From: Anaerolineales bacterium
GTDB lineage: Bacteria > Chloroflexota > Anaerolineae > Anaerolineales > Villigracilaceae
Direction of reading: 5' to 3'
DNA length: 43,054 bases
NCBI GenBank assembly: GCA_043767565.1
Contig: JAYUGV010000020.1
Location: 1-43,054 of the forward strand
How positions within the stretch are numbered: the stretch's first letter is position 1; the number at the start of each line of letters is the position of its first letter. Of this stretch, positions 25,237 to 43,054 are shown piece after piece. The notes beneath the pieces are model-generated. The model was not told the DNA's origin and did no database searches. It saw nothing but the letters and a program-made list of their open reading frames with translations. The position numbers and the translations under genes are program-made.

Positions 25237-26247
25237 TTAAACGGGTAACAGATCAGACAATTTTTCAGGCTCAATTGTCGGGTTTGATTCATAAAGATAA
25301 CAAGAGGCAGCTTGATGTTCGCTCAATCGGAAGAGTGGCGGAGACTGCTTGCATTTATCCATCACAAATGGACAACGTGAAGAAAACTTACAGCCAACGC
25401 TCTTTTCAGAAAGTTCAGATTCTCTGACCTTGATCTCGGTCTCACCCCAGCGGCGATTCATATCAGGCCACGGGATCGAGTCGATCAACAGCTTTGTATA
25501 TGGGTGCTGCGGATTTTTAATTACCTTATCCACATCGCCCGCCTCCATCACCTGGCCGCGATACAGAACCACGATCGAATTAGCGATGTGATAAGCGGTA
25601 GTGAGATCGTGGGTAATATAAATTATCGAAACGCCATAATCTTTTTGTAAACCGCGCAGGGTTTCCAAAATATTAGCGCGTAGCGAAGCGTCCACCATTG
25701 ACACAGGTTCATCAGCCACCAATAGTTTTGGACGAAGTAACAGTGCGCGCGCAATGTTGATGCGTTGACGCTGTCCACCCGAGAGTTGATGGGGGAAGCG
25801 GCCCAACACATCACCCGGGCGCAAACCAACAGCAGTCAGCGCTTCCACCATTCTGTCCATAGCCTCGCTTTTCGATTTAGCCAATTTGAAGCGCGCTATG
25901 GGAACAGTGAGTAAATGATCAACTGTATAGAAGGGGTTGAACACCGCAAACGGGTCCTGGAATACAGCCTGCACCTCTCGTCGGAACAGCATCCTTTCTT
26001 CGCCGCGCAGGCTATGAATATTTTTGCCTTTGTAGAGAATCTGGCCAGAGGAGGGCTCTATGAATCCTAATAACAACATCGCCAGGGTGGTCTTGCCGCT
26101 GCCACTTTCACCAGCCACTGTGGTGATCGTTGGCTGTTCAGCATCCAATTTCAGTGACATGTTATTTAATGCGATCGTGGAAACACGGGAAAGTAATCCA
26201 CGTGAATAGGTTTTTGTAACGTTTTTGAATTCCAGTAGATCGGACAT
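25237..26247 (-). CDS. Opp/Dpp-type ABC transporter ATP-binding subunit (OppF-like)
   Basis: GESGSGKT, LSGGQRQR, ADEP, HPYT and a C-terminal Cys motif. Confidence 0.95.
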   Translation of the reverse strand: MSDLLEFKNVTKTYSRGLLSRVSTIALNNMSLKLDAEQPTITTVAGESGSGKTTLAMLLLGFIEPSSGQILYKGKNIHSLRGEERMLFRREVQAVFQDPFAVFNPFYTVDHLLTVPIARFKLAKSKSEAMDRMVEALTAVGLRPGDVLGRFPHQLSGGQRQRINIARALLLRPKLLVADEPVSMVDASLRANILETLRGLQKDYGVSIIYITHDLTTAYHIANSIVVLYRGQVMEAGDVDKVIKNPQHPYTKLLIDSIPWPDMNRRWGETEIKVRESELSEKSVGCKFSSRCPFVMDKCKQSPPLFRLSEHQAASCYLYESNPTIEPEKLSDLLPV

Positions 26248-26250
26248 GGG

Positions 26251-27216
26251 TTAGGCTTTCTCCGAGTAAAGGTGGCATTCGAGAATCTGTCCGCCGGATA
26301 AGGTGATGGATGGCGGGCGTTGTGTTTTACATATTTCCATCACTTGTGAACAGCGCGGATGAAAGGCACAGCCGCCGGGAAGTTGTAAAAGTGCCGGTGC
26401 CATGCCAGGAATCCCGTTGAATACACCCTTGTTTTCAAGGTTGGGCAGGCTGTGGATGAGGGCTTGGGCATACGGGTGCTTGGGGTCAGTGAACATATCC
26501 CGCACTTTGCTTAATTCCATGATCCGCCCGGTATACATCACAGCCACTTTATCTACAAATTGCGCCATCAAGCCCATGTCGTGGCCGATCAAGATCACGG
26601 CTGCACCAATTTGCTTTTGCACACGGTCAATGGTCTCCATGACCTGTCGTTGCGTAACCACATCCAATGCGCTGGTGGGTTCGTCGGCAATGATGACTTT
26701 CGGTTTCAGTAAAATGCTGATGGCAATGCAGGCGCGTTGTTTCATACCGCCGCTTAATTCGTGCGCATACATTTTGAATACGTTGCTGCTAAGGTCCACA
26801 GACTCAAGCGCTTCTTTACAGCGTTTTTCAATTTCAGCGCCAGTGAAACCTACATCGTGCGCCATGATCGCATCCACCATTTGAGCGCCGATGCGTGTTA
26901 CCGGGTTAAGCGAATTCATCGCGCCTTGCGGAATATAAGCGATTTTGCTAAGGCGCGCCTTACGCATGTTCTGATCGCTGAGACTCATTAGATCGGTGCC
27001 ATCCACTATGACATTGCCACCTTCAATGCGGCCCGGGGGTTTGATCATTCGCATCATAGCCAATGCCATGGTGCTTTTACCTGAACCTGATTCACCCACC
27101 AAGCCTAACTTCTCACCTGCATTGAGCGTTAAATCCACCCCATCCAGGGCGCGGGCACGGCCGGCATCGGTGTAATAGGTTACTTGCAGGTTTTTGACTT
27201 GAAGGACGGGGATCAT
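26251..27216 (-). CDS. Opp/Dpp-type ABC transporter ATP-binding subunit (OppD-like)
   Basis: GESGSGKS, LSGGMKQR, ADEPTSALD and GCAFHPRC. Confidence 0.95.
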   Translation of the reverse strand: MIPVLQVKNLQVTYYTDAGRARALDGVDLTLNAGEKLGLVGESGSGKSTMALAMMRMIKPPGRIEGGNVIVDGTDLMSLSDQNMRKARLSKIAYIPQGAMNSLNPVTRIGAQMVDAIMAHDVGFTGAEIEKRCKEALESVDLSSNVFKMYAHELSGGMKQRACIAISILLKPKVIIADEPTSALDVVTQRQVMETIDRVQKQIGAAVILIGHDMGLMAQFVDKVAVMYTGRIMELSKVRDMFTDPKHPYAQALIHSLPNLENKGVFNGIPGMAPALLQLPGGCAFHPRCSQVMEICKTQRPPSITLSGGQILECHLYSEKA

Positions 27217-27272
27217 GAAAGCACCTTGAAATAATTTATCTTCTGTATATGCTGTATATAGATTAACATAAG

Positions 27273-28172
27273 TTATTCCGATTTGCGAATTCGAGGGTTG
27301 GCAAGTTCATCCAGCCCCATATTGACGAGAGCCAGCGAGCCAAGGATGAGCACCAAGGCAAGGGATGGCGCCAAGGGCCACCACCACCAATTATTGAAAA
27401 ATGCGCTCGCGCCTTGCGCCGCCCAAATGATATTCCCCAGCAATGGTTCGCGGAGTGGACCAAGACCCAGCACAGCCAAATAAAATGAGGCAAACACTGC
27501 AAAGAAAACCTGGTTCACAAAAGCGGCTGCAATGAACGGCAACAGATTAGGCAGGATTTCACTGAAGATAATGCCCGAGTCGCCCATGCCTGAAAGTTTG
27601 GCAACGGAAACAAACTGGCGTTCCTTCATGGTTAGTACTTGCGCTCGAATCACCAAAGTGGGTCCCATCCAGGCGAGCAGCACGACCACAAATGCCATGG
27701 TGAATATGGTGACATCACGCTTATCCAGCGAGCCGGCCAGGATGACCTGAATTAGAAAGGCCGGAATAGGTGTCAGGATTTGACAAACGCCTTTGATAAT
27801 CACATCCAGCCAACCTCCGAAGTAAGCGGATATGAAACCCAACGCCACTCCGACCAAAGTGCCAAGCGCTCCTGCGAGCAAACCGATGATGGCAGTTTGC
27901 TTTAAACCGACCACCATCGCCACGTATAAATCACGACCAAAGAAATCGGTGCCAAACGGGAATTCCCGACTGGGTGGCAATTTATTCTTGACGGAGATAG
28001 GATAGGCATGTTTGAGGTCGGCGGTGAGTAAGCCGTGGACAGTAAAGAGGACGAGCAGCAAGATAATGGACAAGCCAACCGCCAGACCTTTGTTACGGCG
28101 CAAGTAGCGCAATACCAAAGTCAAGCGGCTGGGTTGGAGTATTTCAGGTTGGGTTAGAGAAACAGTCGTCAT
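27273..28172 (-). CDS. ABC transporter permease (OppC-like)
   Basis: PFGTDFFGRD, EAA-like loop FVSVAKLSG, ILPNL and NPR at the C-terminus. Confidence 0.9.
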   Translation of the reverse strand: MTTVSLTQPEILQPSRLTLVLRYLRRNKGLAVGLSIILLLVLFTVHGLLTADLKHAYPISVKNKLPPSREFPFGTDFFGRDLYVAMVVGLKQTAIIGLLAGALGTLVGVALGFISAYFGGWLDVIIKGVCQILTPIPAFLIQVILAGSLDKRDVTIFTMAFVVVLLAWMGPTLVIRAQVLTMKERQFVSVAKLSGMGDSGIIFSEILPNLLPFIAAAFVNQVFFAVFASFYLAVLGLGPLREPLLGNIIWAAQGASAFFNNWWWWPLAPSLALVLILGSLALVNMGLDELANPRIRKSE

Positions 28173-28189
28173 TTTATAGGGGCTCCTCA

Positions 28190-29185
28190 CTAATTTCGAA
28201 TGCGGGGATCAAGCAAAGGATATACAAATTCCATCAACACCATTAAGGTGGCGACGGCAATGGTAACAAATAAGACGACACCATAAATAACCAGGAAATC
28301 ATTGGACTGGATCGCTTCTTGCAACACACGTCCAAGCCCGGGCAAGCCAAATTGAGATTCGATAACAATTGCAGAAGTGACCACCCCGCCTAGTGCCAAA
28401 GCCAGACCGGTTACTTGCGGCAGGAGGGCGTTGCGCAGGTAATAATCCTTAAAAATGGCGTACCCCCCGAGTCCCTTGTGCTCGGCAAAGTTAACATAGT
28501 CTTCACCCTGAATGGTTATCCCCATACCGCGCATCGTAAGCGTCCAGCCTCCGACAGAGCCTAACAAGAGCGCCAAACCAGGCAGGAGTTGATGCCAGAC
28601 CACATCCCAAACAAAAGCGGGTGAAGACCAGTCGGGGATGACTCCAGTACCATAAGCGCCGCCCAAGGGGGCTAGTTTGAGTTTAAAACCGATAAAGAAT
28701 AATAACAGAACCCCCATGACGACTGGTGGCACACCTTGCAGCAAAATAAAGGGTGTTGCCACGGTGCGAAGCCATTGGGGCGAACGCGGCCAGGCAGCAA
28801 TCGCACCCAGTAAATTTCCAATAACAAAGGATAGTGTGGTGGTTACGAGCAGGAGAACAATCGTCCACGGGAGCGAGTCCATAATCAATTCCATGACGGT
28901 TCTAGGATATTTATTGAATGATACGCCCATATCAAGGCGAGCGACGCTGGATACATAATCCCAGTATTGTGCCAGGAGCGGTTTGTCAAGACCAAATTTT
29001 GTATTGTAAGACGCGATAATTTCCTCGAGGCTTTCAGGCGAAAAACCACCGGTGCGCGCCAGCGCGGCAAAACGCTCACGCACGGGATTCCTATCAGAAA
29101 GCCGCGGGATGAAGAAGGAGATGGTTGAAGCAGCCCAGATCACCAAAATTAGAAAGAGCAGGCGGTTAATAATGAGTTTTGTCAT
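28190..29185 (-). CDS. ABC transporter permease (OppB-like)
   Basis: FGLDKPL, DYVNFAEHKGL, LRNALLP and LDPRIR. An AAGGAG RBS precedes ATG 29185. Confidence 0.9.
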   Translation of the reverse strand: MTKLIINRLLFLILVIWAASTISFFIPRLSDRNPVRERFAALARTGGFSPESLEEIIASYNTKFGLDKPLLAQYWDYVSSVARLDMGVSFNKYPRTVMELIMDSLPWTIVLLLVTTTLSFVIGNLLGAIAAWPRSPQWLRTVATPFILLQGVPPVVMGVLLLFFIGFKLKLAPLGGAYGTGVIPDWSSPAFVWDVVWHQLLPGLALLLGSVGGWTLTMRGMGITIQGEDYVNFAEHKGLGGYAIFKDYYLRNALLPQVTGLALALGGVVTSAIVIESQFGLPGLGRVLQEAIQSNDFLVIYGVVLFVTIAVATLMVLMEFVYPLLDPRIRN

Positions 29186-29247
29186 GAGGCACTCCTTGCA
29201 TAGGATAATAAATAATAACACTTGCAGGCGAAAAACAGTTAACCTAA

Positions 29248-29293
29248 TTTCAATGCATAGGGACACTACAAGCAACGTCCCTATGCATTGAAA
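29248..29293. repeat. 17 bp inverted repeat (REP-like hairpin) between SBP and permease genes
   Basis: tttcaatgcatagggac-N12-gtccctatgcattgaaa. Confidence 0.75.
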
Positions 29294-29336
29294 AGTTTAT
29301 GTAAAACCTGAACGAATCAGGTCTTGCTTGTAAAGG

Positions 29337-29366
29337 TTACGTGGCGCGCTTGAGCGCGCCACGTAA
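29337..29366 (-). terminator. GC-rich hairpin directly after the SBP gene (attenuating or stabilising stem-loop)
   Basis: ttacgtggcgcgct-tg-agcgcgccacgtaa, 18 bp past the stop codon. Confidence 0.7.
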
Positions 29367-29383
29367 TTCAAAACATCAAATAT

Positions 29384-31225
29384 TTATTTGGCTTTCTCGA
29401 GGCCGGTGATAACCAACATACCGGTATGTGCCCAGAAAGCGCCGTTGGTACCCATTGCCAAATTGTCCGCGGTTGGCCAATTGGTCCAATAGGTCTGGTT
29501 GTAGGGGATGCGGTGCAACCATTGGATGATAGGAATGTCGATCGTGTCACGCCAGTAAATGCCCATTGCCTGTGCAGCAAGTTCCGAGAACCTGGGGTCG
29601 TCACTGCTGAGCGGAGCCATCTCGGCGAGAATAGCATCGTATTCCGGGTTCGAATAACGCGAGAAGGCGTTGTTACCCGCAGTTGTGCCGATCGGGGAGC
29701 TGTTGGCGGAGGTGTATAACTTTAATACCGCCTCTGGATCCTTTAAGCTGGCGCCGTGACCGAACATATAAAGACCGGGTTCACCGTTCGCCATATGGTT
29801 GTAGGAGTCAGGGCTAAAGTCAATGTCAGCGTCAAAGCCGCCGGCACGCAGCATTTCAACCAGAATCGTTACGATATCTGAATGAATGCCTTCAAAGCCG
29901 TTGATGACGGCCGGTACTGTTGCGCCGTCCTTCTCCCACATGCCATCGCCATTTTTGGCAAAGCCAGCAGCGGTCATAAGTTTGGCGCTTTCATCAAGGT
30001 CAAACTTGCGTGGTTCATATTGTGCTACCAACGCTTTGACATCATCGCGATCTGCAAACTTCTGCAAGCCAGGATAGAGAGGGAAGGGGTAAATGGTGGT
30101 AACTTTTGCACCTTCGTATAAGAGTTCGTCAATCTGGTCGCGGTTAACAGCAAGGCTGATAGCGCGGCGGACGTTCTTATCGTTAAAAGGCGCGATCTGA
30201 GTGTTCATCCACAACGAGTTAGGCCACCAGTCTAGATAGCCGTAAGGTGAAGAGCTGCCGGTGTGAGTCGTGACCTTCGGGTTGGAATCAAGGATCTGCT
30301 TGGCAACGCTGCTGCGCACATCGAGGATGGCGTCAAATTCGTTGTTGACCAGGCGTTGGATGACGATATCCATGTTTTGACCGACTTGACCGCCGATGTT
30401 CACAATGACGATACGCTTAACCTGAGGTTCGGCGATACGGCCAGCTTTGACAGCCCACCAATCTGAACGCAGATCATAGATCTTCTGGTTGGCGTCCCAC
30501 AGAACGAGGCTATAAGGACCCGAGTGGGGCATATCCAAGCCGCCAGGGAAAGCCTGTACATCGGCTTGTGCTTCCAATACATGCGCAGGCACAATTGGAA
30601 TGCCGGTATCGAACTTGAGCATCAGCACTTCAAAGGCAAAGCGCGGGGCGGGGATCTTGAATGTGACTACCACGGTCTTATCATCTGGAGTAGCAACGCT
30701 TTTCATATATTGAACAAAGGAACCATGGTAAGGCAACTTGTCGTTCGTCAACTGGCCATTGAATGTGAAAGCTACGTCTTTGGAGGTCACGGGTATACCA
30801 TCGCTCCAGGCGGCATCTTTATTGAGTTTGATGGTCAATTCGGTGAAGTCGGCTTTGGTGTATTCCATGCTATCAGCCAACCAGGGGATTTGCTTGTCGG
30901 CGAAGATGGCAAAGTACATCAGAGGTTCCCACAGCATGGCATTGCCAGACTGATGGGTGTAGCCGGTGGACCAAGGGTTGGTTGTGCCAATCGGGTCACT
31001 AATAGACCAACCCAGGATGGCAGTGTCTTCACGGGCAACTTCAGACAAACTAGCAACGGCTTCGGTTGCCGCAGGGGCATCGGTCGCAACGGCGGGGGCA
31101 TCGGTCGCAACGGCGGGGGCTTCGGTCGCAACGGCGGGGGCTTCGGTGGGTTTTGCACCACCACCGCAAGCAACGAGCACGATCGCCACCAAGGCGATGA
31201 TACTAAATAACTTGAACTTATTCAT
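29384..31225 (-). CDS. ABC transporter family-5 substrate-binding lipoprotein (probably oligosaccharide-binding)
   Basis: Lipobox VLVAC, repeat linker, PWLA, WSDG.PVT..DV.FT and VRRAISLAVNR. Confidence 0.9.
   Translation of the reverse strand: MNKFKLFSIIALVAIVLVACGGGAKPTEAPAVATEAPAVATDAPAVATDAPAATEAVASLSEVAREDTAILGWSISDPIGTTNPWSTGYTHQSGNAMLWEPLMYFAIFADKQIPWLADSMEYTKADFTELTIKLNKDAAWSDGIPVTSKDVAFTFNGQLTNDKLPYHGSFVQYMKSVATPDDKTVVVTFKIPAPRFAFEVLMLKFDTGIPIVPAHVLEAQADVQAFPGGLDMPHSGPYSLVLWDANQKIYDLRSDWWAVKAGRIAEPQVKRIVIVNIGGQVGQNMDIVIQRLVNNEFDAILDVRSSVAKQILDSNPKVTTHTGSSSPYGYLDWWPNSLWMNTQIAPFNDKNVRRAISLAVNRDQIDELLYEGAKVTTIYPFPLYPGLQKFADRDDVKALVAQYEPRKFDLDESAKLMTAAGFAKNGDGMWEKDGATVPAVINGFEGIHSDIVTILVEMLRAGGFDADIDFSPDSYNHMANGEPGLYMFGHGASLKDPEAVLKLYTSANSSPIGTTAGNNAFSRYSNPEYDAILAEMAPLSSDDPRFSELAAQAMGIYWRDTIDIPIIQWLHRIPYNQTYWTNWPTADNLAMGTNGAFWAHTGMLVITGLEKAK
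31075..31147 (-). repeat. 21 bp coding tandem repeat (APAVAT[E/D], about 3.5 copies) in the SBP linker
   Basis: tcggtcgcaacggcgggggc(a/t) starts at 31080, 31101 and 31122. Confidence 0.9.
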
Positions 31226-33159: not shown

Positions 33160-33171
33160 TCAACCACCAGC

Positions 33172-33936
33172 ATGAACAATACCATGACGAACGTAGATTC
33201 AAGGTCGACCTCTGATAATGCCCCAAACCCGGGACATATACGCACGCGCCGCGGTTATCATGAGATCTTTGAGGCTCTGCAACAACGTATTCGTCAGGGG
33301 GATTGGTTACCCGGTGCACGCCTGCCCAGCATTGTACAACTGGCGAAAGAGTATCAAGTCGGCGCCGGTTCGATCCGTGAGGCTTTACGTTCCTTACAAT
33401 CCATCGGACTGGTCAAGATCGAGCACGGCAGCGGTGTGTATATTACCGGATCACGACCCGCTACTGAACTATCCAGCCACTTTCAAAACGTGGGCGAGGA
33501 TCAACTTATTGCGCTCGCTGAAACCCGTTGTATTTTGGAACCGGAACTTGCGGCTCTGGCTGCTGAACGCGGAACGGATGATGAGTTGGCTGAAATTGAA
33601 GGGCTTGTGCGCCAAATGGAAGAGGAAGATAAACACGGCAATGATTTTGCCGAACTGGATGTATTGTTCCATCGGAAAATAGCGCATGCCGCGCGTAACC
33701 CCATACTCTACCAAACTATAGAAGGCGTTAGTGATTTATTTTTAGAGAGTCGCCGTGCCGTCCTTTTAAACCCGACCTTGTTATTGCGCGCCTTGCGCTA
33801 TCACGCCCTGATTGCAGAAGCGCTAAAGCTAAGAAATGCGCCGCAGGCACGCTTATTAATGCAAGGGCACATGAACTCCATGTTGGACGAAGTTATAGCT
33901 TCCGAAGAAAATAAAAATAATAAGGAAAAACTATGA
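33172..33936 (+). CDS. GntR/FadR-family transcriptional regulator
   Basis: PGARLPS, SIREAL and HGSGVY, plus an FCD domain (ETRCILE, DVLFHRKIA, N, H). Confidence 0.92.
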   Translation: MNNTMTNVDSRSTSDNAPNPGHIRTRRGYHEIFEALQQRIRQGDWLPGARLPSIVQLAKEYQVGAGSIREALRSLQSIGLVKIEHGSGVYITGSRPATELSSHFQNVGEDQLIALAETRCILEPELAALAAERGTDDELAEIEGLVRQMEEEDKHGNDFAELDVLFHRKIAHAARNPILYQTIEGVSDLFLESRRAVLLNPTLLLRALRYHALIAEALKLRNAPQARLLMQGHMNSMLDEVIASEENKNNKEKL

Positions 33937-34760
33937 GAATTGCAGTTACAGGCGGCAACGGGGATATGGGCAGAAGCCTGATCCCATATTTGCTGGAACA
34001 GAATCACACAGTCGTCAGCATTGACCGCGCATTACCAACACCCGCTCGTGTACCTGGTGTGAATTTTATCGTGGCAGATACCCGCGATTTTGGACAATTC
34101 GTTGCCAGCATTCGCGATTGTGATGCATTGATTCATCTTGCGGCGATTCGCGCACCAGTCAATCATCCCGACCCCGTGGTCTATGCAGATAATACGATCA
34201 GCAGTTACAACGCTTTGAGTGCCGCCGCAACGCTCGGGATTAAACGTGTGAGTATGGCGTCTTCCATCAATGCGATCGGTGGGGCGTTCAGCCGCTCGCC
34301 GTGCTACGATTATTTTCCTGTTGATGAAAATCATCCCACCTATTCAGAAGATCCTTATAGTCTTTCCAAGTGGGTCATGGAACAACAAGGCGATGCCTTC
34401 GCTCGTCGTTTCGAATGGATGTCGATTGCGAGCTTACGTCTGCACATGTTGATCGATTCACGCGCGCCGGCAGTTCAACGTACTGCACCCATGGGAGAAA
34501 TTGCAATCAAGCACATTTGGTCTTACACGCTGCTCAAAGAAGCGAGTCGGGCTTTCCTGCTTTCATTGACAGCAGATTTTACCGGGCATGAAGTTTTCTA
34601 CATCACGGCGCCTGTTACAGCCGCAATGCAACCGTCAACCGAACTTGTACAGCAATATTACCCGTCCGTAGAAATTCGCGGCGACTTATCAAACCATAAC
34701 AGCCTCATCAATTGTTCCAAAGCCGAGCGCATCCTCGGCTGGAAACACCAGGAGAATTAA
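33933..34760 (+). CDS. NAD-dependent epimerase/dehydratase family oxidoreductase (paralog of 14723..15550)
   Basis: VTGGNGDMG, HLAA, ASS and EDPYSLSKW. Confidence 0.85.
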   Translation: MRIAVTGGNGDMGRSLIPYLLEQNHTVVSIDRALPTPARVPGVNFIVADTRDFGQFVASIRDCDALIHLAAIRAPVNHPDPVVYADNTISSYNALSAAATLGIKRVSMASSINAIGGAFSRSPCYDYFPVDENHPTYSEDPYSLSKWVMEQQGDAFARRFEWMSIASLRLHMLIDSRAPAVQRTAPMGEIAIKHIWSYTLLKEASRAFLLSLTADFTGHEVFYITAPVTAAMQPSTELVQQYYPSVEIRGDLSNHNSLINCSKAERILGWKHQEN

Positions 34761-34763
34761 CCT

Positions 34764-35951
34764 ATGAAGATCACAGATATCAAACCCCTCCCCGTTTGGG
34801 TGGGCAGTCGCAATCAGTTGGTTGTCAAAGTGGAAACCGATGAAGGGCTTTACGGACTCGGCGAATCAGGCTTGAGCGGACGCGAGTTGGCGGTCATCGG
34901 CGCGCTGAAACATTTCCGTGAATTTCTGATCGGCAAGGACCCATTGCAGATCGGGCGCATCTGGCAGGAGCTTTATCGAAGCCAGTATTTTGAAGGCGGA
35001 CGTGTTTTGCTTGCTGCGCAAAGCGCCATCGATATTGCGCTTTATGACATTGCTGGCAAAGCCCTCAATGTGCCAGTGTATCAATTGCTGGGCGGCAAGC
35101 ATCGGGATGTGATTCCGTGTTTCGCAACCGCATCAGGTGCGGGTCCGGCATTGATCGATGATGTCAAGTTATTGAGAAAACATGGTTGGAACGTCATCCG
35201 CACCGGACCGATGACGCTCGATCATCACGGCGGCTTCACTGGGGAATCAGATATTTGGGAGCCCCGTGAAAGTATTCCCATGACTGCCAAATGGCTGACA
35301 AAGGTGCGCGAAGAATGCGGCAGTGATTTTGTGATGGGCATTGATTATCATCATCGCCTCAACCTCGCTGAGACGGCGTCTTTTTGCCAGCGTATGCCAA
35401 AAGGGACACTTGATTTTATTGAAGAACCCATGCGTGATGAATCACCTGAAGCATATGAAGCGTTGCGCAAAATGACGGATGTTCCGTTTGCAATTGGCGA
35501 AGAGTTCGCAAGCAAATGGCAATTCGCGCCTTTCATTGAAAGACACCTCACCGATTTTGCGCGCGTGGATCTGTGCAACGTGGGAGGTTTTACTGAAGCG
35601 ATGAAAGTGGCTGGTTGGGCTGAAGCGCATTACATTGACTTGATGCCGCACAACCCGCTGGGTCCCGTTTGCACTGCCGCAACGATCCATATGGCGGCGG
35701 CGGTACCCAACTTTGCCTGGCTTGAAGTGCGTGTGACGCAAACCGAGAATTTATATTACGGGCAATCTGGTGTAAACGATGCGGAAGCGTTATTCCCGGT
35801 TCAGCCATTGCTCGAAGGCACATCCTTCCCCGTGCCCACTGCGCCTGGACTCGGCATTGAGATGGATTTGAAACTCGCCGAATCACAGACCTGGAAATTC
35901 TGGGAAGCCCCGCATTGGAAGCGCCGCGACGGCTCTGTCCAAAATTGGTAA
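34764..35951 (+). CDS. Mandelate racemase/muconate lactonizing family (galactonate dehydratase-like)
   Basis: AIDIALYDIAGKALNVPVYQLLGG, IDYHHR, IEEP, IGEE and MPHNPLGP. Confidence 0.85.
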   Translation: MKITDIKPLPVWVGSRNQLVVKVETDEGLYGLGESGLSGRELAVIGALKHFREFLIGKDPLQIGRIWQELYRSQYFEGGRVLLAAQSAIDIALYDIAGKALNVPVYQLLGGKHRDVIPCFATASGAGPALIDDVKLLRKHGWNVIRTGPMTLDHHGGFTGESDIWEPRESIPMTAKWLTKVREECGSDFVMGIDYHHRLNLAETASFCQRMPKGTLDFIEEPMRDESPEAYEALRKMTDVPFAIGEEFASKWQFAPFIERHLTDFARVDLCNVGGFTEAMKVAGWAEAHYIDLMPHNPLGPVCTAATIHMAAAVPNFAWLEVRVTQTENLYYGQSGVNDAEALFPVQPLLEGTSFPVPTAPGLGIEMDLKLAESQTWKFWEAPHWKRRDGSVQNW

Positions 35952-36011
35952 AACATGAATCTGGACATTTATTCCGGATCAAATTTAACCCTGTGCTTGA
36001 TTCTTTAAAAT

Positions 36012-37208
36012 ATGCCTGCTCTTACCCGTCGTGACTTTCTGATCCTTGCAGGTGCAGTTGGCACGACAGTTTTAGTCGCCCGCATTGGGGCAGGTAAATA
36101 TTTAAATAGCCAATCATCAGATCCACTTCAAACTTTGGAGACATCCATGCCTTCTTCGTCACTCATCTTTGCCAGCGGATATGCTCCCGCAAATCAGCCA
36201 GGCATTCAAGCATTTATGTTCAATGAAACCAGTGGTGCGTTGGAATCGCATGGTTCTTTCACTGGCATCTTCAACCCTTCGTTCATCCTCGTCCATCCCA
36301 ACGGTAAATGGCTGTATGCAGTAAGTGAGGCAGGTCAATCGAGTGACGGCACCCCGGGCGGTGTCTGCGCCTTGAGTTTTGAGCGTGAACCATTTTCCAT
36401 ACGTTTGCTAAACCAGCAAACCACGCGCGGTGATTGGCCCTGTCATCTGAGGCTCGATGGAACAGGTCAATGGTTGGTCGCTACCAATTATGGTACTGGT
36501 AACGCTGCTATATATCCGCTTCAAGCTGATGGCTCTCTCGACGAGATGACAGATTTCGTCCAACATCAAGGCAAGGGACCGAACACGGCGCGACAAGAGG
36601 GACCACACGCTCACTCATCCATCTTCACGCCGGATAATCGCTTCGTCATCATCGCCGATTTGGGAATTGACCAGCTTGTAATGTATAAATTCGATTCGTC
36701 AACAGGCAAACTTTCACTGCACGCCTCGGTCAACGCATCGCCCGGGGCTGGTCCACGCCATTTGGCTTTTCATCCAAACGAAAAGTGGCTGTATGCCGCG
36801 AATGAACTTGATAGCACGGTGACGTTATATGAGTATGAGGCTGTGAATGGCACATTACTTGAAAAACAAAACATACCTACCATCCCATCTGATGCTCCAG
36901 AAAATATTGTTGCCGATATTCATCTCGACACATCTGGCAAACGGCTTTATGTTTCCAACCGCGGGTATAACAGTATTGCCGTATATGACCTCAACGACGA
37001 TGGCAATCTGACTTTGGTTTCGATTCCTGCCTGCGGCGGAAACTGGCCGCGAAATTTTGCGCTCGCGCCGCAGGGAAACTTTATGCTGGTCGCAAATCAA
37101 TATAGCAATGAAGTGAGCGTCCTGCCAATTCTTGATGGAGTGGACGTGCTCGGCGATCCAGTGGCACGCGCAACTGTTGCTGGCGCTTCATGTGTACAAT
37201 TTGTATAA
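36012..37208 (+). CDS. pgl: 6-phosphogluconolactonase/lactonase family protein with N-terminal Tat-like signal
   Basis: TRRDFL followed by a hydrophobic stretch. Motifs NPSF, PCH, RQEGPHAH, DLGID, GPRHL, SNRG and PRNF. Confidence 0.85.
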   Translation: MPALTRRDFLILAGAVGTTVLVARIGAGKYLNSQSSDPLQTLETSMPSSSLIFASGYAPANQPGIQAFMFNETSGALESHGSFTGIFNPSFILVHPNGKWLYAVSEAGQSSDGTPGGVCALSFEREPFSIRLLNQQTTRGDWPCHLRLDGTGQWLVATNYGTGNAAIYPLQADGSLDEMTDFVQHQGKGPNTARQEGPHAHSSIFTPDNRFVIIADLGIDQLVMYKFDSSTGKLSLHASVNASPGAGPRHLAFHPNEKWLYAANELDSTVTLYEYEAVNGTLLEKQNIPTIPSDAPENIVADIHLDTSGKRLYVSNRGYNSIAVYDLNDDGNLTLVSIPACGGNWPRNFALAPQGNFMLVANQYSNEVSVLPILDGVDVLGDPVARATVAGASCVQFV

Positions 37209-37211
37209 ACT

Positions 37212-38213
37212 ATGAATTCATCAACCGATACCCCTCGTTTTGATTTTGTCAGCCTCGGCGAATCCATGTTGCGGCTGAGTGTGCCAACCGGCAAGAGACT
37301 CGACGACACACGCCTGCTTGATATGGAACTTGCCGGTGCAGAAAGCAATGTCAGTGTGGCGCTGGCGCGATTGGGCTGGCGCGTGGGCTGGGTCAGCCGC
37401 ATGCCAGATCACGCCCTGGCAAATGCCATCCTGCGCGCATTGCGCTCCGATGGTGTGGATATATCCGCAGTGAAGCGCGTACCCGATGAACGACTGGGTA
37501 CATATTTTATCGAATACGCCACCGCCCCACGCGCAACCCAGGTGATCTACGATCGCGCGAACTCGGCTGCTGCGCATATGACCATAGCTGATGTTGATTG
37601 GGATTATCTGTTGGATACACGCGTCTTACATCTCACGGGCATCACAGCGGCGATCAGTGAAAGTTGTTATGCAATATTGGTTGAGGCGATCCGATGTGCG
37701 CGTGCTGCGGGCGTGATGGTCAGCTTCGATGTGAACTTTCGCGCCAAATTATGGTCGGCGGCTACTGCTAGAGAAAAGCTACGTCCGCTCATTGCAGAAG
37801 CCGATTTATTATTGTGCAAAGGTACAGATGCCGCGGCTCTGTTTGGATGTCAGGGCGAACCACGTCAACTGATGGCTGAGTTGCAAAAGTTAACTCGTGC
37901 CTCTGCCCTCTTCTGCACGTTCGGTGAAAAGGGCGCGGCATTATTGAGCGGCGACGAATTCGTAACGCAGCCTGCGCTCCCTGTTCAGATCGTTGACCGG
38001 ATCGGCAGTGGTGATGCGTTTGCGGCTGGCGTGCTCGATGGCTGGCTGGCAGGTGACGCATCTGCAAAAAACACTTCTGCTTTACGCGAGGGCTTGAAGC
38101 ACGGCGTAGCGTTGGCAGCCATTGCGTTGTCACAATTTGGGGATCGAGTCTTATCATCGCGCACCGAACTGAATGCGGCGTTGGCAGCCGAGCGGCTCGA
38201 TATTTCGCGTTAG
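37212..38213 (+). CDS. kdgK: 2-keto-3-deoxygluconate kinase (PfkB family)
   Basis: GESMLRL, GAESNV, YDR, FDVNFR and DRIGSGDAF. Confidence 0.85.
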   Translation: MNSSTDTPRFDFVSLGESMLRLSVPTGKRLDDTRLLDMELAGAESNVSVALARLGWRVGWVSRMPDHALANAILRALRSDGVDISAVKRVPDERLGTYFIEYATAPRATQVIYDRANSAAAHMTIADVDWDYLLDTRVLHLTGITAAISESCYAILVEAIRCARAAGVMVSFDVNFRAKLWSAATAREKLRPLIAEADLLLCKGTDAAALFGCQGEPRQLMAELQKLTRASALFCTFGEKGAALLSGDEFVTQPALPVQIVDRIGSGDAFAAGVLDGWLAGDASAKNTSALREGLKHGVALAAIALSQFGDRVLSSRTELNAALAAERLDISR

Positions 38214-38222
38214 GAGAAAAGC

Positions 38223-38852
38223 ATGTCTGCCATTCAAGAAATTCTTGCAAAAAAAGTTGTGGCTGTTGTAAGGCTGGATAATTACAACCGTGCCGTGGAT
38301 GTGGCACGGGCGCTCGTCGCAGGCGGTGTGACCGTGTTGGAATTTACGCTCACGGGTCGCGGCGCCATTGAAGCTGTTTCAGCGACTCGAAAAGCTTTGG
38401 GCGACGCTGCCTGTGTGGGTGTAGGAACAGTTCTAAAGGCGGAGGATGCGGAGGCGGCGATCGATGCGGGCGCGGAATTTCTAGTCACGCCTGCCGTCCG
38501 CCATCAAGTCATCGCGACCTGTGTTAAACGTCAAACTTTAATTCTGTGCGGTGGGTTGACGCCCACTGAATTATTGGAAGCGCACGAGGCAGGCGCTGAA
38601 ATGGTGAAAGTGTTTCCCGCCCAATCAGGCGGACCGAATTTCATTAAAAATGTACTTGCCCCCATGCCCTTCTTAAAGTTAGTGCCCACCGGCGGAGTCA
38701 GCCCAGAGAACGCGCGTGATTATTTGGCGGCTGGTGCGGTGGCAGTTGGCATCGGCGGAAATTTGGTTTCCAACAAACTCGTGGCAGCAGAAGCGTTCGA
38801 TCAGATCACGCTGACAGCCCGGGCTTGTATGGCTGCCATTGGCGCAAGTTGA
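38223..38852 (+). CDS. eda: KDPG/KHG aldolase
   Basis: VAVVR, LEFT, GVGTV, TPTE, VKVFPA and PTGGV. Confidence 0.92.
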   Translation: MSAIQEILAKKVVAVVRLDNYNRAVDVARALVAGGVTVLEFTLTGRGAIEAVSATRKALGDAACVGVGTVLKAEDAEAAIDAGAEFLVTPAVRHQVIATCVKRQTLILCGGLTPTELLEAHEAGAEMVKVFPAQSGGPNFIKNVLAPMPFLKLVPTGGVSPENARDYLAAGAVAVGIGGNLVSNKLVAAEAFDQITLTARACMAAIGAS

Positions 38853-38936
38853 GCATTTGGATTTATTGGTATAAATTTATAGAGCTGACTTTAGTTGTAG
38901 CCGATCGTTGAAAATCAATCTACAATGGAGGCTCAA

Positions 38937-40103
38937 ATGAATTCTCGTGAACGTGTCTTGACAGCATTAAATCATAAGGAACCAGACCGGGTTCCTTATG
39001 ATATGGGGGGCACAGTGGTTACCGGCATTCAAGCCAGGGCTTATGCCCGGCTTCGTACATATCTTGGCTTGCCCGAAAAAGAAATCAAGATCATTGATAT
39101 TCTGCAACAACTTGCCCAGGTGGATGACGACGTGATGGAGCGGCTGGGCGTGGATTGTCGCAACATCTCGCCGCGCTCCACTGCCAGTTTTAAAATTGAA
39201 CTCAAGCTAACTCCCGATGGAAAATATAGTTATTTTTACGATGAATATCAAATCGGCTGGCGCATGCCGGTGGATGGCGGTATGTACTACGATATGTTCG
39301 ATCATCCGCTGAGTGGGGAGATCATAGCAAAGAACGTGGAAGATTACATCCTGCCTAACCCGCTCGACCCTTCACGTTTTGAGGGGTTACGTGAGTCTGC
39401 CCTAAAAGTACTGGAACATGAAAAACGCGCCCTGATCATTGGCAATATATCAGCGGGAATTTTTGAATTGTATTTATGGACGCGGGGCTTTAAAGATGGT
39501 TATACCGATTGGGCTGGGAATCCAGAATTAGCCAGGAAGATCTTGCGGAAATACACCGACCTGCAGCTTGCCTATTGGGAACGAATGTTTGAAGTCATGC
39601 AGGGTATTCCCATTGACGTGGTTCAAATGGCTGACGATCTCGCGGGGCAAAACACCGTGCTTATCTCCCCCAACTCATATCGCAAACTGCTCAAGCCCTT
39701 CCACAAGGAAATGTTTGATTACATCCATTCGAAGACCGACGCAAAGATTTTCTTCCATTCCTGCGGAGCCGTCCGCAAACTCATCCCAGACCTGATCGAA
39801 GTGGGCGTGGACATCCTCAATCCTGTGCAGGTTAACGCCGCGGATATGGACTCAGCCGAACTCAAGCGCGAGTTTGGGAAGGAAATTTGTTTCTGGGGCG
39901 GCGGCGTGGATACGCAAAGCGTATTCGACGAAGCGCACACGCCGGAAGAGGTCCGCGCCGATGTTCGCAAGCGCGTCGAAGATCTCATGCCCGGCGGCGG
40001 ATTTGTCTTCAACACGGTCCATAATATTCAGGGGAACGTGCCTCCTGAAAATATTATGGCGATGTGGGAAACTTTGCAACAGTACGGCGTATATACCAAC
40101 TAA
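38937..40103 (+). CDS. Uroporphyrinogen decarboxylase-like / MtaA-CmuA-like methyltransferase family protein
   Basis: MNSRERV...EPDRVP, DEYQIGW, DDLAGQ, FHSCG, GVDILNPVQ, FWGG.VD and GGFVF...HN. GGAGG RBS. Confidence 0.85.
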   Translation: MNSRERVLTALNHKEPDRVPYDMGGTVVTGIQARAYARLRTYLGLPEKEIKIIDILQQLAQVDDDVMERLGVDCRNISPRSTASFKIELKLTPDGKYSYFYDEYQIGWRMPVDGGMYYDMFDHPLSGEIIAKNVEDYILPNPLDPSRFEGLRESALKVLEHEKRALIIGNISAGIFELYLWTRGFKDGYTDWAGNPELARKILRKYTDLQLAYWERMFEVMQGIPIDVVQMADDLAGQNTVLISPNSYRKLLKPFHKEMFDYIHSKTDAKIFFHSCGAVRKLIPDLIEVGVDILNPVQVNAADMDSAELKREFGKEICFWGGGVDTQSVFDEAHTPEEVRADVRKRVEDLMPGGGFVFNTVHNIQGNVPPENIMAMWETLQQYGVYTN

Positions 40104-40113
40104 AGGAGAAATC

Positions 40114-40767
40114 ATGGACCTCAAAAATGTCTCGGAAGCCGTGGTCAATGGCAGCGTTCAAGATGTACAAACGACTGTAAAGGAAGCGCTTGACGCCAAT
40201 ATATCAGCAGAAAAAATTCTCAACGAAGGTCTCATCCCTGGTATGACCGAGGTGGGCTGTCTGTTTGAAGCACAGGAATTTTATGTGCCGGAGATGCTCG
40301 TCTCTGCCAAGGCTATGCAATCGGGTTTGAAAACGCTCAAACCGCTGTTGGCGAGTCAGGCATCTTCATCAGGCGGACAAGTGACTCTCAAAGCCGCCAT
40401 AGGCACAGTGAAAGGCGATCTTCATGATATCGGCAAAGACCTGGTGATCATAATGCTTGAAGGTGCGGGTTTTCAGGTAACTGATCTGGGTGTGAATGTG
40501 CCGCCTGAAAAATTCATTGAAGCCGTTAATGACGGCGCGCAATTGATCGGTCTTTCAGCGATGTTGACAACAACCATGCTTAACATGCGGAGCACTATCG
40601 ACGCATTGAAAGAGGCCGGGGTACGGGATAAAGTGAAAGTGATTGTCGGTGGCGCGCCATTGAACCAGTCATTTTCCGATCAAATCGGAGCGGATGGGTT
40701 TGCCAAAGACGCAAGCTCTGCCGTGCGGAAAGCCAAAGAATTAATGACCACACAGGAGATCTCATGA
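40114..40767 (+). CDS. Corrinoid (cobalamin-binding) methyltransferase cognate protein
   Basis: Cap domain (EFYVPEML), B12 motif GDLHDIGK, GLSAML and VGGAP. An AAGGAG RBS precedes ATG 40114. Confidence 0.92.
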   Translation: MDLKNVSEAVVNGSVQDVQTTVKEALDANISAEKILNEGLIPGMTEVGCLFEAQEFYVPEMLVSAKAMQSGLKTLKPLLASQASSSGGQVTLKAAIGTVKGDLHDIGKDLVIIMLEGAGFQVTDLGVNVPPEKFIEAVNDGAQLIGLSAMLTTTMLNMRSTIDALKEAGVRDKVKVIVGGAPLNQSFSDQIGADGFAKDASSAVRKAKELMTTQEIS

Positions 40768-41750
40768 AAAAACTTCGTTGGGGATTGCTAAGCACGGCCC
40801 GCATCAATGGCGCGTTATTGCCGCCGCTCCGTTCATCGGCTCGCAACATATTGACCGCCGTCGCCAGCCGCGATCTTGAGCGAGCGAAAATCTATGCCGA
40901 TGAACGGAATATTCCGCGCGTCTTTGGCAGTTATGAAGAGCTGCTCGCCGACCCCGACGTGGACGTGATCTACAATCCCCTGCCCAATAGTATGCACACC
41001 GAATGGACCATCAAAGCCGCTCAGGCGGGCAAGCATGTGCTGTGCGAGAAGCCGTTGGCGAACACTGTAGAAGAAGTGGATGCAATTACCGAAGCGGCGA
41101 AAAAAGCTGGTGTCATTGTGATGGAGGCGTTCATGTATCGCCACCATCCGCAAACGCTAAAGGTAAAGGAACTGGTTGATGCGGGAGCCATTGGCAAACT
41201 TCAACTGATTCGCGGATCGTTTACCTTCATGATGCCAGCCGATCGTGAAAACGATGTACGGCTGAACGCGTCGCTCGGCGGCGGCAGTATCTGGGATGTG
41301 GGCTGTTATCCCATTAGTTACGCGCGCTTAATCGCGGGTGCTGAACCGACTGAAGTTTTTGGCTGGCAGGTAACCGGCGCGAATAGCGGCGTGGACGAAT
41401 CATTCTTTGGTCAAATCCACTTTCCTAATCATGTCTACGCTCAATTTGATTGCGGCTTCCGCACACCGCAACGCACCAACATGGAACTGGTCGGGGATCA
41501 AGGCAGCATCACGGTCAAACTACCCTTCACTCCAAAATTAAACGAGGAAATTTTTGTGACGAACGGCGACGAGAAGCGCATCCTCACCATACCCGGTGAG
41601 GATCTGTATCTGGGTGAGGTTGAGAATATGGCTGACGCAATTCTGGAGGGCAAAGCCATCCGCATGAGCCTGGCTGACAGCCGCAATAATGTTGCCACCA
41701 TCCAGGCATTACTGCGTTCCGCTCACGAAGGAAAAACCGTCACGCTGTAA
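40764..41750 (+). CDS. Gfo/Idh/MocA family oxidoreductase (aldose dehydrogenase-like)
   Basis: WGLLSTARI, PLPNSMH, VLCEKP, EAFMYRHHP and GGGSIWDVGCY. Confidence 0.9.
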   Translation: MKKLRWGLLSTARINGALLPPLRSSARNILTAVASRDLERAKIYADERNIPRVFGSYEELLADPDVDVIYNPLPNSMHTEWTIKAAQAGKHVLCEKPLANTVEEVDAITEAAKKAGVIVMEAFMYRHHPQTLKVKELVDAGAIGKLQLIRGSFTFMMPADRENDVRLNASLGGGSIWDVGCYPISYARLIAGAEPTEVFGWQVTGANSGVDESFFGQIHFPNHVYAQFDCGFRTPQRTNMELVGDQGSITVKLPFTPKLNEEIFVTNGDEKRILTIPGEDLYLGEVENMADAILEGKAIRMSLADSRNNVATIQALLRSAHEGKTVTL

Positions 41751-41786
41751 TTACTTAAGCGTTATCAAAAACCCTAATATTCATAT

Positions 41787-41829
41787 AGAGCTTTCGTTCG
41801 CAATCGGTTTATTTGCGAACGAAAGCTCT
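41787..41829. terminator. 17 bp stem hairpin after the Gfo/Idh/MocA gene
   Basis: agagctttcgttcgcaa-N9-ttgcgaacgaaagctct. Confidence 0.75.
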
Positions 41830-41942
41830 GTCATAATTAAACCCATTCTTTAATAAAGTTACATTTATCACTTGTGCATCGTTATAGATAAGTTGTATAA
41901 ATAGGGTGCGAAACTATATCAACTTCACAGATTGGCACAAAA

Positions 41943-43054
41943 ATGTATCCACTACCCAAAAAAAACCATGTCCCCCGAAATCTTTCCCGTCGCGATTTCT
42001 TACGTCTTGCTGGCATTGCGTCCGCGAGTTTGTTGGTAACCAACTGCCAACCTCAAGCCACAGCAGTGACAACCCCGCCGCCGTCCAGTGCCTCTAAAAC
42101 ACCGGTCTCAATCAGCCGTGTGCAAACGTATGACCGAGCCACAATCGAGAAGCAGTTGCAAATATTGATTGATCAACTCGGGGGTCTTGACGACGTAGTC
42201 AAGCCAGGCGACAGTGTCGCTATCAAAACCAATCTGACCGGTGGCGTAAATTCAGGATTGCTCAACGGTATTCCCGCTGAGGAGAGCTACGTCACTCATC
42301 CAGAGGTTGTGCGCGCCTTGGTCAAGCAAGTCCAAGCAGCGGGGGCGAAGGAAATTTTCATAGTCGAGGCCGTCTATGAATGGGAGTCTTATAAACAGTG
42401 GGGCTATGAGGAAATTGCCAGTGACCTCGGCGTAACATTGATCGACCTGAACGACTCCAAGCCTTATAATGATTTCGTGGAGACACCGGTTGGGCCTGAT
42501 AGCCACATTTATGATAAGTTTACCTTCAACAATATATTGAACGACGTGGATGTGTTCATGTCGGTATCCAAGATGAAGAATCATTATCTCGCGGGTGTGA
42601 CGCATACACTGAAGAATCTATATGGTCTCGTGCCATATCGATTCTATCGCTTGAATGAAGAGGATAAATATCGTTCCGGTTTCCATGGTACAGAGGCGCA
42701 AACTCAACAGCGCCTGCCGCGCATCATCGTGGATATCAACCGTGCGCGCCCCATCCATTTTAGTTTGATCGATGGGATCAAGAGCACACAGGGCGGCGAA
42801 GGTCCGTGGATCGAATCGCTGGCTGCGATCGAGCCGGGTTTGTTGATTGCAGGCAAAAACCCAGTCGCCACAGATGCTGTTGCCACGGCTGTCATGGGTC
42901 ACGATCCGACAGGTGAATATCCTGAATCCCCCTTCGTCCGTTGCGTCAATCACCTCAACCTTGCCGCGCAAGCCGGGTTGGGCACAAATCGACTGGATGA
43001 AATTGAAGTGCTTGGAGCGCAGATCGCCGACGTTAAAACCCAATTCATTCCAGC
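41943..43054 (+). CDS. DUF362 domain protein with Tat signal, running off the window end (absent from the ORF track)
   Basis: Manual translation MYPLPKKNHVPRNLSRRDFLRLAG...TNC...VKPGDSVAIKTNL...THPEVV...SKMKNH..GVTHTLKNLYG...IDGI. Confidence 0.85.
   Translation, partial: MYPLPKKNHVPRNLSRRDFLRLAGIASASLLVTNCQPQATAVTTPPPSSASKTPVSISRVQTYDRATIEKQLQILIDQLGGLDDVVKPGDSVAIKTNLTGGVNSGLLNGIPAEESYVTHPEVVRALVKQVQAAGAKEIFIVEAVYEWESYKQWGYEEIASDLGVTLIDLNDSKPYNDFVETPVGPDSHIYDKFTFNNILNDVDVFMSVSKMKNHYLAGVTHTLKNLYGLVPYRFYRLNEEDKYRSGFHGTEAQTQQRLPRIIVDINRARPIHFSLIDGIKSTQGGEGPWIESLAAIEPGLLIAGKNPVATDAVATAVMGHDPTGEYPESPFVRCVNHLNLAAQAGLGTNRLDEIEVLGAQIADVKTQFIP

Follow-up and report, generated by a model that had tools for sequence, protein, structure and literature searches.

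We examined a 43,054-nucleotide stretch of contig JAYUGV010000020.1 from an Anaerolineales bacterium (assembly GCA_043767565.1), hereafter the window, in which a gene for a UroD-superfamily TIM-barrel protein and a gene for a stand-alone corrinoid protein are encoded between kdgK-eda and a Gfo/Idh/MocA dehydrogenase gene. In plants and algae, sugars that carry O-methyl groups are protected against degradation. On balance, the two proteins probably constitute a corrinoid O-demethylase that removes such a group from a methylated sugar, sugar acid or cyclitol without oxygen, as a module plugged into existing operons. The broader association of the enzyme family with sugar genes is strong, and the assignment of the UroD-fold protein as a putative corrinoid methyltransferase I is supported by its predicted fold, a RACE activator in the genome, co-occurrence of homologs with RACE, a modeled complex, and a complete system in one relative. 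The arrangement itself, co-oriented genes for a UroD-fold protein with an HSCG motif and for a DxHxxG corrinoid protein between kdgK-eda and Gfo, had been described in an earlier note on this DNA and is confirmed by open reading frames (ORFs) and family profiles, as is the ATGA overlap of the corrinoid and Gfo genes at 40764-40767.

Sugar genes around homologs of the UroD-fold protein

We annotated the neighbors at 180 homolog loci, some of which are near-duplicates, and counted marker families of sugar uptake and catabolism within 5 kb of the homolog in the 106 loci whose flanks amount to 7 kb or more (the remaining 74 were dropped). At least one marker family is present in 74 of the 106 loci, and two are present in 49. 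The corresponding counts are 2 and 0 of 14 MtaA-like loci, 2 and 0 of 20 arbitrary windows, and 12 and 4 of 123 genome tiles, with the reservation that the markers were built from homolog neighborhoods, so that these controls are undercounted. The arbitrary windows were therefore rechecked with Pfam, which again gave 2 and 0 of 20 (138 of 146 ORFs, E 1e-22).

The kind of sugar gene differs between clades. Neighbors in different clades pass curated cut-offs for xylA, xylB, iolG, iolM, iolN, iolO, ribulokinase, nagA and kduD. The sister loci of the query carry xylA and xylB with DUF4380 and a creatininase-like gene, and the nearest of them also have a MocDE-like oxygenase gene; other clades of the tree carry iolG/iolM/iolN/iolO/uxaE, araA with ribulokinase and a glycyl radical enzyme, or nagA; and a further clade has SusC/SusD with Gfo and TIM-barrel genes. 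All five close DUF4380 genes in a 400-genome sample of the class adjoin a homolog, four of them together with a corrinoid gene.

One operon recurs at L055-L064, L135, L139 and L224, where LacI, a sugar ABC transporter, three UroD-like genes and a corrinoid protein are accompanied by a glycyl radical enzyme with its activase and often by araA and ribulokinase. The glycyl radical enzyme of this operon matches no named family over cut-off.

Predicted fold and metal site

The AlphaFold2 model of the UroD-fold protein has a mean predicted local distance difference test (pLDDT) score of 79.2. Its best Foldseek match is MtaA (4ay7, E 7.4e-11), and VIA-align comparison with UroD and MtaA structures gives Z 19.1-20.6 and a root-mean-square deviation of 3.7-4.1 over 303-312 aligned residues; CdmB is not among the matches that the fold searches listed. 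These fold matches, together with PF01208, place the protein in the UroD superfamily of TIM barrels. The earlier reading of an MtaA-type fold is thus borne out, although by scores and site the protein is neither MtaA nor HemE. There is no TIGR01464 match at E 1e-5, and solved UroDs are reached by profile only at E 0.23-0.32, which excludes HemE. An MtaA/MtbA/Mlp S-methyltransferase identity is rejected by scores far below the cut-offs (TIGR01463, 58.6 vs 235.4; NF040654, 43.4 vs 400) and by the incomplete His-Cys-Cys zinc set of those enzymes.

Residues are numbered here from position 38925. The HSCG motif corresponds to H278-S-C280-G, and H278-x-C280 aligns with the HxC of MtaA in profile comparison; the position of the third Cys in five MtaA-like proteins is occupied by H366. 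The predicted metal site is therefore His-x-Cys…His plus Asp-Asp, not His-Cys-Cys. We assessed conservation in an alignment of 171 sequences (the query and 170 of the 180 loci, sequences below 300 amino acids having been dropped). D237, D238 and H278 are kept in 170 of them, H366 in 168, E181 in 164 and C280 in 161, with Asp in place of the Cys in nine; 18 of 20 distant homologs (30-37% identity) have H-x-D. His-Cys-Cys is described as the mark of S-methyltransferases, and O-methyltransferases as replacing one or both Cys (PMC10418091). The site thus points away from sulfur chemistry, short of proving an ether substrate.

The family is large: at least 7,969 of 7,999 scored candidates match at E 1e-30 or better, not all of which belong to the subfamily of the enzyme. 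An Atlas search with the homolog P0012 returned unnamed URO-D clusters only, and the plasmid collection held only 29-30% matches. Profile comparison of the UroD-fold protein with the MtaA-like protein of the source genome was uninformative (probability 1.8).

Putative corrinoid partner, activator and methyl acceptors

The modeled complex of the UroD-fold protein with the adjacent corrinoid protein scores 0.78, against 0.00 for the best of three controls; the mark applied was reached by 116 of 157 solved pairs and by 2 of 215 mismatched pairs. Agreement between runs covers at least 89% of the contacts, and the partner has a pLDDT of at least 89. This result may reflect only likeness to solved methyltransferase-corrinoid pairs.

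As the earlier note had observed, neither a methyl-tetrahydrofolate transferase nor a reductive activator is apparent in the window: no pterin-binding methyltransferase and no RACE was found in the scan of 37 window ORFs. The genome-wide search that the note had called for was successful in part. The source genome of the window (G000, 75% complete) encodes a RACE activator with all four RACE domains on contig C64; no stand-alone pterin-binding methyltransferase was found there, only MetH. Stand-alone pterin methyltransferases are present in the relatives G189 and G201. G000 also encodes MtmB-like and MttB-like proteins, each with its own corrinoid gene, and formate-tetrahydrofolate ligase. A Wood-Ljungdahl sink for the methyl group was rejected for the query, as acetyl-CoA synthase/carbon monoxide dehydrogenase was not found in this 75% complete genome (it is present in G201). 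MtaB was likewise considered as the partner of the corrinoid protein and rejected, being found in none of five genomes (G000 and its close relatives G189, G201, G202 and G128). Because MtaB was found in none of the five, the adjacent UroD-fold enzyme is the simplest partner for the corrinoid protein.

On C64, the region L014:8793-18858 encodes, besides RACE, a corrinoid protein, an MtmB-like protein of 456 amino acids without internal stop, an ECF transporter, a homocysteine methyltransferase and an MtaA-like protein. The latter has S-x-C where H-x-C is expected. Of the 15 family genomes with a match to the MtaA-like gene, at least 10 have it no more than a few kb from RACE, and the group looks like a shared methyl-sink module.

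Among 200 family genomes, RACE is encoded in all 66 that have a homolog (E 1e-40) and in 89 of the 134 that do not; none of the 45 RACE-negative genomes has a homolog. We regard this as support and not as proof, because RACE is common in the family regardless (155 of the 200 genomes) and related genomes are not independent. Across several phyla, RACE was found in 72 of 80 homolog-bearing genomes. Three of the four RACE-negative Bacteroidota tested hold a stand-alone corrinoid protein, and in two of those the corrinoid gene adjoins a homocysteine methyltransferase gene, or a pterin methyltransferase gene with MTHFR.

A corrinoid gene is located immediately 3' of the homolog in 11 of the 180 loci, which span 47-88% identity and separate clades, and anywhere in the fetched DNA in 35. 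The complete system is found at L349, where one co-oriented run encodes a sugar ABC transporter, DUF4380, xylA, the homolog (57% identity), a corrinoid protein, MtaB, RACE and a homocysteine methyltransferase. At L347 the homolog (67%) is followed by a corrinoid protein, a pterin methyltransferase, a short-chain dehydrogenase/reductase (SDR) and an enolase-family dehydratase.

In three Bacteroidota loci (L238, L239 and L240) a stand-alone corrinoid gene is divergent from a GntP-family, gluconate-type permease gene; at L240 the genes after it encode a UroD-thioredoxin-like fusion and a homocysteine methyltransferase. The ORF after the corrinoid gene at L051 (12014-12733) has no Pfam or NCBIfam match at the thresholds used; by eye, it resembles a stand-alone methionine-synthase reactivation domain.

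The same evidence bears on two other functions. The protein could be a corrinoid-independent metal enzyme of sugar catabolism (a hydrolase, lyase, epimerase or decarboxylase), with the corrinoid gene an occasional neighbor that serves another methyltransferase. The 145 of 180 loci without a corrinoid gene in the fetched DNA, many of them short contigs, would suit such an enzyme, as would its UroD-like His on the last strand and the Bacteroidota genes found in SusC/SusD loci away from any corrinoid gene. MtaB could also be the real partner of the corrinoid protein at L349, but it was found in none of the five genomes named above. The absence of homologs from the 45 RACE-negative genomes, the recurrence of direct adjacency across separate clades and the passing complex model also speak against corrinoid independence, which we judge to be quite improbable. 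Less probable still is the opposite direction of transfer, in which the protein would be a methyltransferase II that moves a methyl group from the corrinoid protein onto a thiol or a sugar hydroxyl. MtaA, the best structural and profile match, is itself a methyltransferase II, but the third Cys is missing and the scores are far below the MtaA cut-offs. Donor enzymes for such a reaction could be the MtmB-like and MttB-like proteins of G000, where no stand-alone pterin methyltransferase was found; these, however, have their own corrinoid genes, a separate MtaA-like protein and homocysteine methyltransferase adjoin RACE, and the context of the query is one of import and catabolism.

MocDE-like oxygenase genes near homologs

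A fatty-acid-desaturase-like gene is found at most two genes from the homolog in six of the 40 loci at 55% identity or more (L070, L072, L075, L077, L161 and L163, the last two cut by contig ends) and also at L331. In each of the four loci scanned, this gene also encodes a MocE-like ferredoxin domain that scores below the TIGR02377 cut-off. Sinorhizobium meliloti pSymB has a desaturase-MocE-FAD reductase-PanB-like run, possibly the rhizopine one, and the desaturase part of the L070 protein shares 57% identity with the product of its first gene; L072 also carries the PanB-like gene (39% identity). MocDEF, or MocD, is described as demethylating 3-O-methyl-scyllo-inosamine (PMC13434037, PMC2593844); the accessible text of PMC10107442 and PMC6668481 does not state this. 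For the Pseudomonas syringae copy, which adjoins a TIM-barrel gene, "xylA2", the function is called unresolved (PMC5132102, PMC13434037). MocDE-like genes occur in 20 of 401 genomes of the class, about 11 of them, on our reading, in sugar loci. This parallel plug-in pattern and the operons with both systems would fit oxygen-using and oxygen-free routes to one methyl ether.

At L070 (11818-14088) the desaturase, MocE and reductase are fused in a single chain of 757 amino acids, and frames of similar length are present in several other genomes of the class. Directly after the MocDE-like gene, L070 (14145-14957) and L075 (12692-13603) encode proteins of 271 and 304 amino acids without a family match, which may correspond to the 278-amino-acid "xylA2" 3' of mocDEF in P. 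syringae.

A corrinoid methyltransferase I could also act on a donor other than a sugar methyl ether, for example an S- or N-methyl sugar, a methoxylated aglycone, or a small methyl compound that arrives with glycans. The MocDE-type neighbor, pointing to a polyol methyl ether, speaks against this, as do the monosaccharide and inositol catabolic enzymes encoded nearby. The His-Cys-Cys set typical of sulfur and selenium enzymes is missing, but one Cys of the site is kept in 161 of 171 sequences. Some loci encode nagA, creatininase-like amidohydrolases, S-Me-THD-like genes with AFOR, MttB or MtaB, and UroD-family methyltransferases are described as accepting aryl ethers, haloalkanes and methyl-selenide, all of which is compatible with such a donor. 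We consider a donor other than a sugar methyl ether unlikely, if less so than the two functions discussed above.

Several observations weigh against a demethylase of sugar ethers. Sugar markers were found by BLAST near only 3 of 20 distant homologs (30-37% identity), a count that rose to about 6 of 20 with Pfam (65 of 117 neighbors scanned), and three close homologs (L073, L153 and L154; 76-79%) have no clear sugar-catabolic neighbors. A PDB sequence search with the UroD-fold protein gave no match at E 0.001, and thus no characterized close homolog. CdmB, described as a metal-free UroD-family methyltransferase I acting on haloalkanes, is only remotely similar (profile E 0.85); because enzymes of this family can be metal-free and can use non-ether substrates, the motif does not fix the substrate. 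Eight of the 80 homolog-bearing genomes gave no RACE match. Only one of the 20 MocDE-like genes of the class sample adjoins a homolog, and no MocDE-like gene was found in G000 or the five relatives searched.

The Entner-Doudoroff link

The earlier note had tied the cassette to a dehydratase/kdgK/eda route. The eda-uroD order recurs in five other loci at 82-88% identity (L049, L069, L149, L155 and L160); the first three also hold the corrinoid gene and Gfo, L155 is cut by a contig end, and L160 lacks kdgK. Among the 40 loci at 55% identity or more, eda is present in six, kdgK in four and ManD in three. We also searched 300 order-level genomes, which gave 18 kdgK matches. Of the best 12, nine have sequence past eda and none has a UroD-like gene there; an ortholog was found in none of those 12 genomes, with 35-38% partial matches elsewhere in six. 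The order manD-lactonase-kdgK, again with no cassette, is present in seven of the 11 wider regions, and several of these also contain gntR and the Opp importer. A family-wide coupling to kdgK/eda, and with it the conserved tie proposed earlier, is thus rejected: it is confined to one lineage, and the operon is common without the cassette. Since the sugar-acid operon exists without the cassette, the latter was most likely added in one lineage. The relevant nodes of the tree have supports of 20-58 and do not separate one from two origins of the Entner-Doudoroff context.

The gap before the UroD-like gene measures 80-84 nucleotides in the query and four close relatives (80-82 in the latter), with a partly shared motif, and may hold a promoter or operator of the cassette itself. 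Folding gave no significant hairpin in this gap (z -0.76), nor was a consensus promoter called on its + strand.

The position after eda may be that of a passenger, with its own promoter and a product that feeds another route, such as xylose isomerase/xylulokinase, and not KDG (2-keto-3-deoxygluconate). We give this an even chance, and it is compatible with a corrinoid O-demethylase. In its favor are the conserved gap, the nine loci with sequence past eda but no cassette, the xylA/xylB genes of the sister loci, and the two copies of xylA and single copy of xylB elsewhere in G000. On the other hand, the order is kept in the five loci named above, G000 and L049 represent different genera with similar identities across the block, L347 and L349 also end in SDR and dehydratase genes, and the gap itself shows neither a significant hairpin nor a consensus promoter.

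Comparison with known systems

The OdmB, VdmB, MtvB, MtoB and CdmBCA systems combine a UroD-superfamily methyltransferase I, a stand-alone corrinoid protein, RACE and a separate acceptor, as would the query (PMC13222342, PMC10418091). Their known substrates are aryl methyl ethers or haloalkanes, whereas the query family is found in sugar operons, usually without such genes next to it. The likeness to OdmB, VdmB, MtvB and MtoB is by published description only, and CdmB is remote, as stated. MtaA/MtbA (4ay7) share the fold and the HxC motif with the query enzyme, at 16-17% identity; the query differs in the His for the third Cys, the conserved Asp-Asp and its bacterial host. Type 1 mlp clusters, too, combine uncharacterized UroD-family and corrinoid proteins in non-methanogens with no folate methylase in the cluster, but they contain at least two His-Cys-Cys Mlps and Ram and have sulfur/selenium neighbors (Kountz and Balskus, PMC10418091); the text describing them never uses the word "sugar". 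Membership in that type is rejected by the single UroD-like gene here and the location of RACE on another contig.

MocDEF and the oxygen-dependent P450 route for 6-O-methylgalactose (PMC6292453) have the net outcome that we propose here: a cyclitol or sugar loses an O-methyl group. Those enzymes need oxygen, and the P450 releases formaldehyde; the query would move the intact methyl group to cobalt without oxygen. Another case is that of BT_0340, BT_0342 and BT_0343 of Bacteroides thetaiotaomicron, which are presumably located among sugar genes. They comprise a corrinoid protein with two methyltransferase-like proteins and are listed as "Mta" (PMC8941943).

We found no corrinoid demethylase for sugars or cyclitols in the literature searched, which covered few subscription papers, and anaerobic demethylation of methyl-galactose is called not elucidated (PMC12316285). 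The architecture is of a known kind, and the proposed substrate class is not described in the literature searched. If the proposal is true, it would supply the enzymes for a step that is still open in the carbon turnover of sediments, digesters and guts, assign a function to some of the many proteins labeled "uroporphyrinogen decarboxylase", and widen the known range of cobamide-dependent methyl-ether cleavage beyond aryl ethers to those of carbohydrates. The present contribution lies in the negative Entner-Doudoroff result, the controls for background, the co-occurrence with RACE, the map of clades to pathways and the MocDE neighbor. Clade-by-clade neighbors give a short list of substrates, and the idea is therefore directly testable.

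Proposed mechanism and substrates

We infer the substrate class and every chemical step of the following scheme. The UroD-fold methyltransferase I would likely bind an O-methylated sugar, sugar acid or cyclitol at the predicted metal site. By analogy with known systems, the His/Cys/Asp site would polarize the ether oxygen, and Co(I) of the adjacent corrinoid protein would take the methyl group. Methyl capture by Co(I) is established chemistry in ether- and methanol-cleaving systems. The freed hydroxyl would likely allow the sugar to be catabolized without oxygen. The RACE encoded on C64 would keep the cobalt reduced, and the methyl group would pass to homocysteine through the stand-alone homocysteine S-methyltransferase encoded beside it or, where a pterin-binding methyltransferase exists, possibly in G189 and G201, to tetrahydrofolate. 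There is precedent for a split cobalamin system that is linked to methionine synthesis (PMC12478193). G000 need not be a strict anaerobe, because a COX1-family oxidase subunit is encoded in it and in four relatives (5/5).

The family would then be a plug-in module with different clades placed in different sugar pathways. In the query lineage, an older sugar-acid operon likely gained the UroD-corrinoid-Gfo cassette at its 3' end. The role of Gfo would be to oxidize the freed aldose and so lead it into the aldonate/KDG route. This coupling is the least certain step and somewhat doubtful, even on the assumption that the enzyme demethylates sugars. The lactonase of the run looks exported and may for that reason not serve a cytoplasmic Gfo.

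The neighbors of the query clade favor a methylated pentose or hexose as candidate substrate. The substrates named in the earlier note, 4-O-methylglucuronate and methylgalactose, received no specific support. In 4-O-methylglucuronate, the methylated carbon becomes the one from which mannonate dehydratase eliminates, by our own reasoning from the standard uronate route. The compound is thus a weak candidate, because that route could eliminate the methoxy group as methanol without a demethylase, and we did not adopt it as the favored substrate. Inositols were not adopted for the query either: IolN and UxaE were not found in the 75% complete G000, where IolM, IolG and IolO match at 24-31% only.

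As a broader and more tentative proposal, the large, multi-phylum UroD-fold subfamily may comprise the missing enzymes that do without oxygen what the MocDEF and P450 demethylases of sugars do with it. It would depend on cobamide, with clades specialized on methyl-pentoses, methyl-inositols such as pinitol, methylated amino sugars and methyl-hexonates, each plugged into the operon that consumes the product. In some Chloroflexota, a single operon would encode two demethylases for the same substrate, one using oxygen and the other B12, and the query lineage would have wired the module into a sugar-acid route.

Layout of the locus and other features of the window

All genes of the sugar-acid run and cassette, from 31690 to 43052, are on the + strand according to ORFs and family profiles (Table 1). 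The start of the UroD-like gene at 38937 is favored over 38925 because of a GGAGG just upstream and gaps in orthologs. DLHDIG corresponds to residues 102-107 of the corrinoid protein, which scores 192 bits for TIGR02370, under the 215.3 cut-off. The best NCBIfam match of Gfo is the D-xylose 1-dehydrogenase Gfo6, below cut-off (132 vs 350), and a paralog with 62% identity is encoded on contig C299 of G000.

Table 1. Features of the sugar-acid run, the cassette and adjoining DNA, with positions in the window.
Feature	Position	Strand	Basis or remark
Divergent Opp-type ABC importer	25237..31225	-	family profiles
GSDH-family lipoprotein	31690-33159	+	upstream sugar-acid run
GntR/FCD regulator	33172-33936	+	upstream sugar-acid run
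NAD-dependent epimerase/dehydrogenase	33933-34760	+	upstream sugar-acid run
ManD/DgoD-like enolase-family dehydratase	34764-35951	+	upstream sugar-acid run
Lactonase, twin-arginine-like N-terminus	36012-37208	+	upstream sugar-acid run
KdgK-like PfkB kinase	37212-38213	+	below NCBIfam cut-offs
KDPG/KHG aldolase (eda)	38223-38852	+	above TIGR01182 cut-off
AT-rich 84-nucleotide gap, eda to UroD-like gene	38853..38936		sequence
UroD-superfamily TIM-barrel protein, predicted corrinoid methyltransferase I	38937..40103 (ORF open from 38925)	+	PF01208, E 1.4e-24
Stand-alone corrinoid protein, cap and B12-binding domain	40114-40767	+	PF02607 and PF02310, DLHDIG
Gfo/Idh/MocA dehydrogenase	40764-41750	+	family profiles
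Hairpin, 19 pairs, no U-tract	41785..41831	+	folding vs shuffles
DUF362 protein, twin-arginine-like N-terminus, open at contig end	41943..43052	+	family profile

The strong hairpin that the earlier note saw after Gfo is real: the folded stretch has -30.5 kcal/mol and z -6.4, a value equaled by none of 200 shuffles. It is single-copy in G000, and the terminator scan did not call it. Its reading as a conserved operon end is rejected, for DUF362 starts 13 and 45 nucleotides after Gfo in the relatives L049 and L069, where the hairpin is absent. Because DUF362 follows Gfo in these two and directly follows the UroD-like gene in L050, it may belong to the cassette. The Opp importer travels with the sugar-acid run, also in genomes without the cassette. 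The twin-arginine-like starts of the lactonase and the DUF362 protein suggest export, alongside the GSDH lipoprotein.

The - strand from 6972 to 31225 is a long sugar-acid region with four more enolase-family dehydratases, two UxuA-like genes, RraA-like and DHDPS-like aldolases, the Opp importer, and CBM9-like and DUF5060 genes. A perfect TTGACA-17-TATAAT match to sigma-70 promoters (31388-31360, - strand) lies upstream of the Opp binding-protein gene, and a 776-amino-acid HTH-AAA-TPR regulator is encoded inside the region (18335-20665). An ADP-ribosylglycohydrolase-family gene is located at 1903-4011. The ORFs at 22161-23216, 24876-25202 and 3223-3792 have no Pfam match; a 31% match to the first of these adjoins two UroD-like genes in L090.

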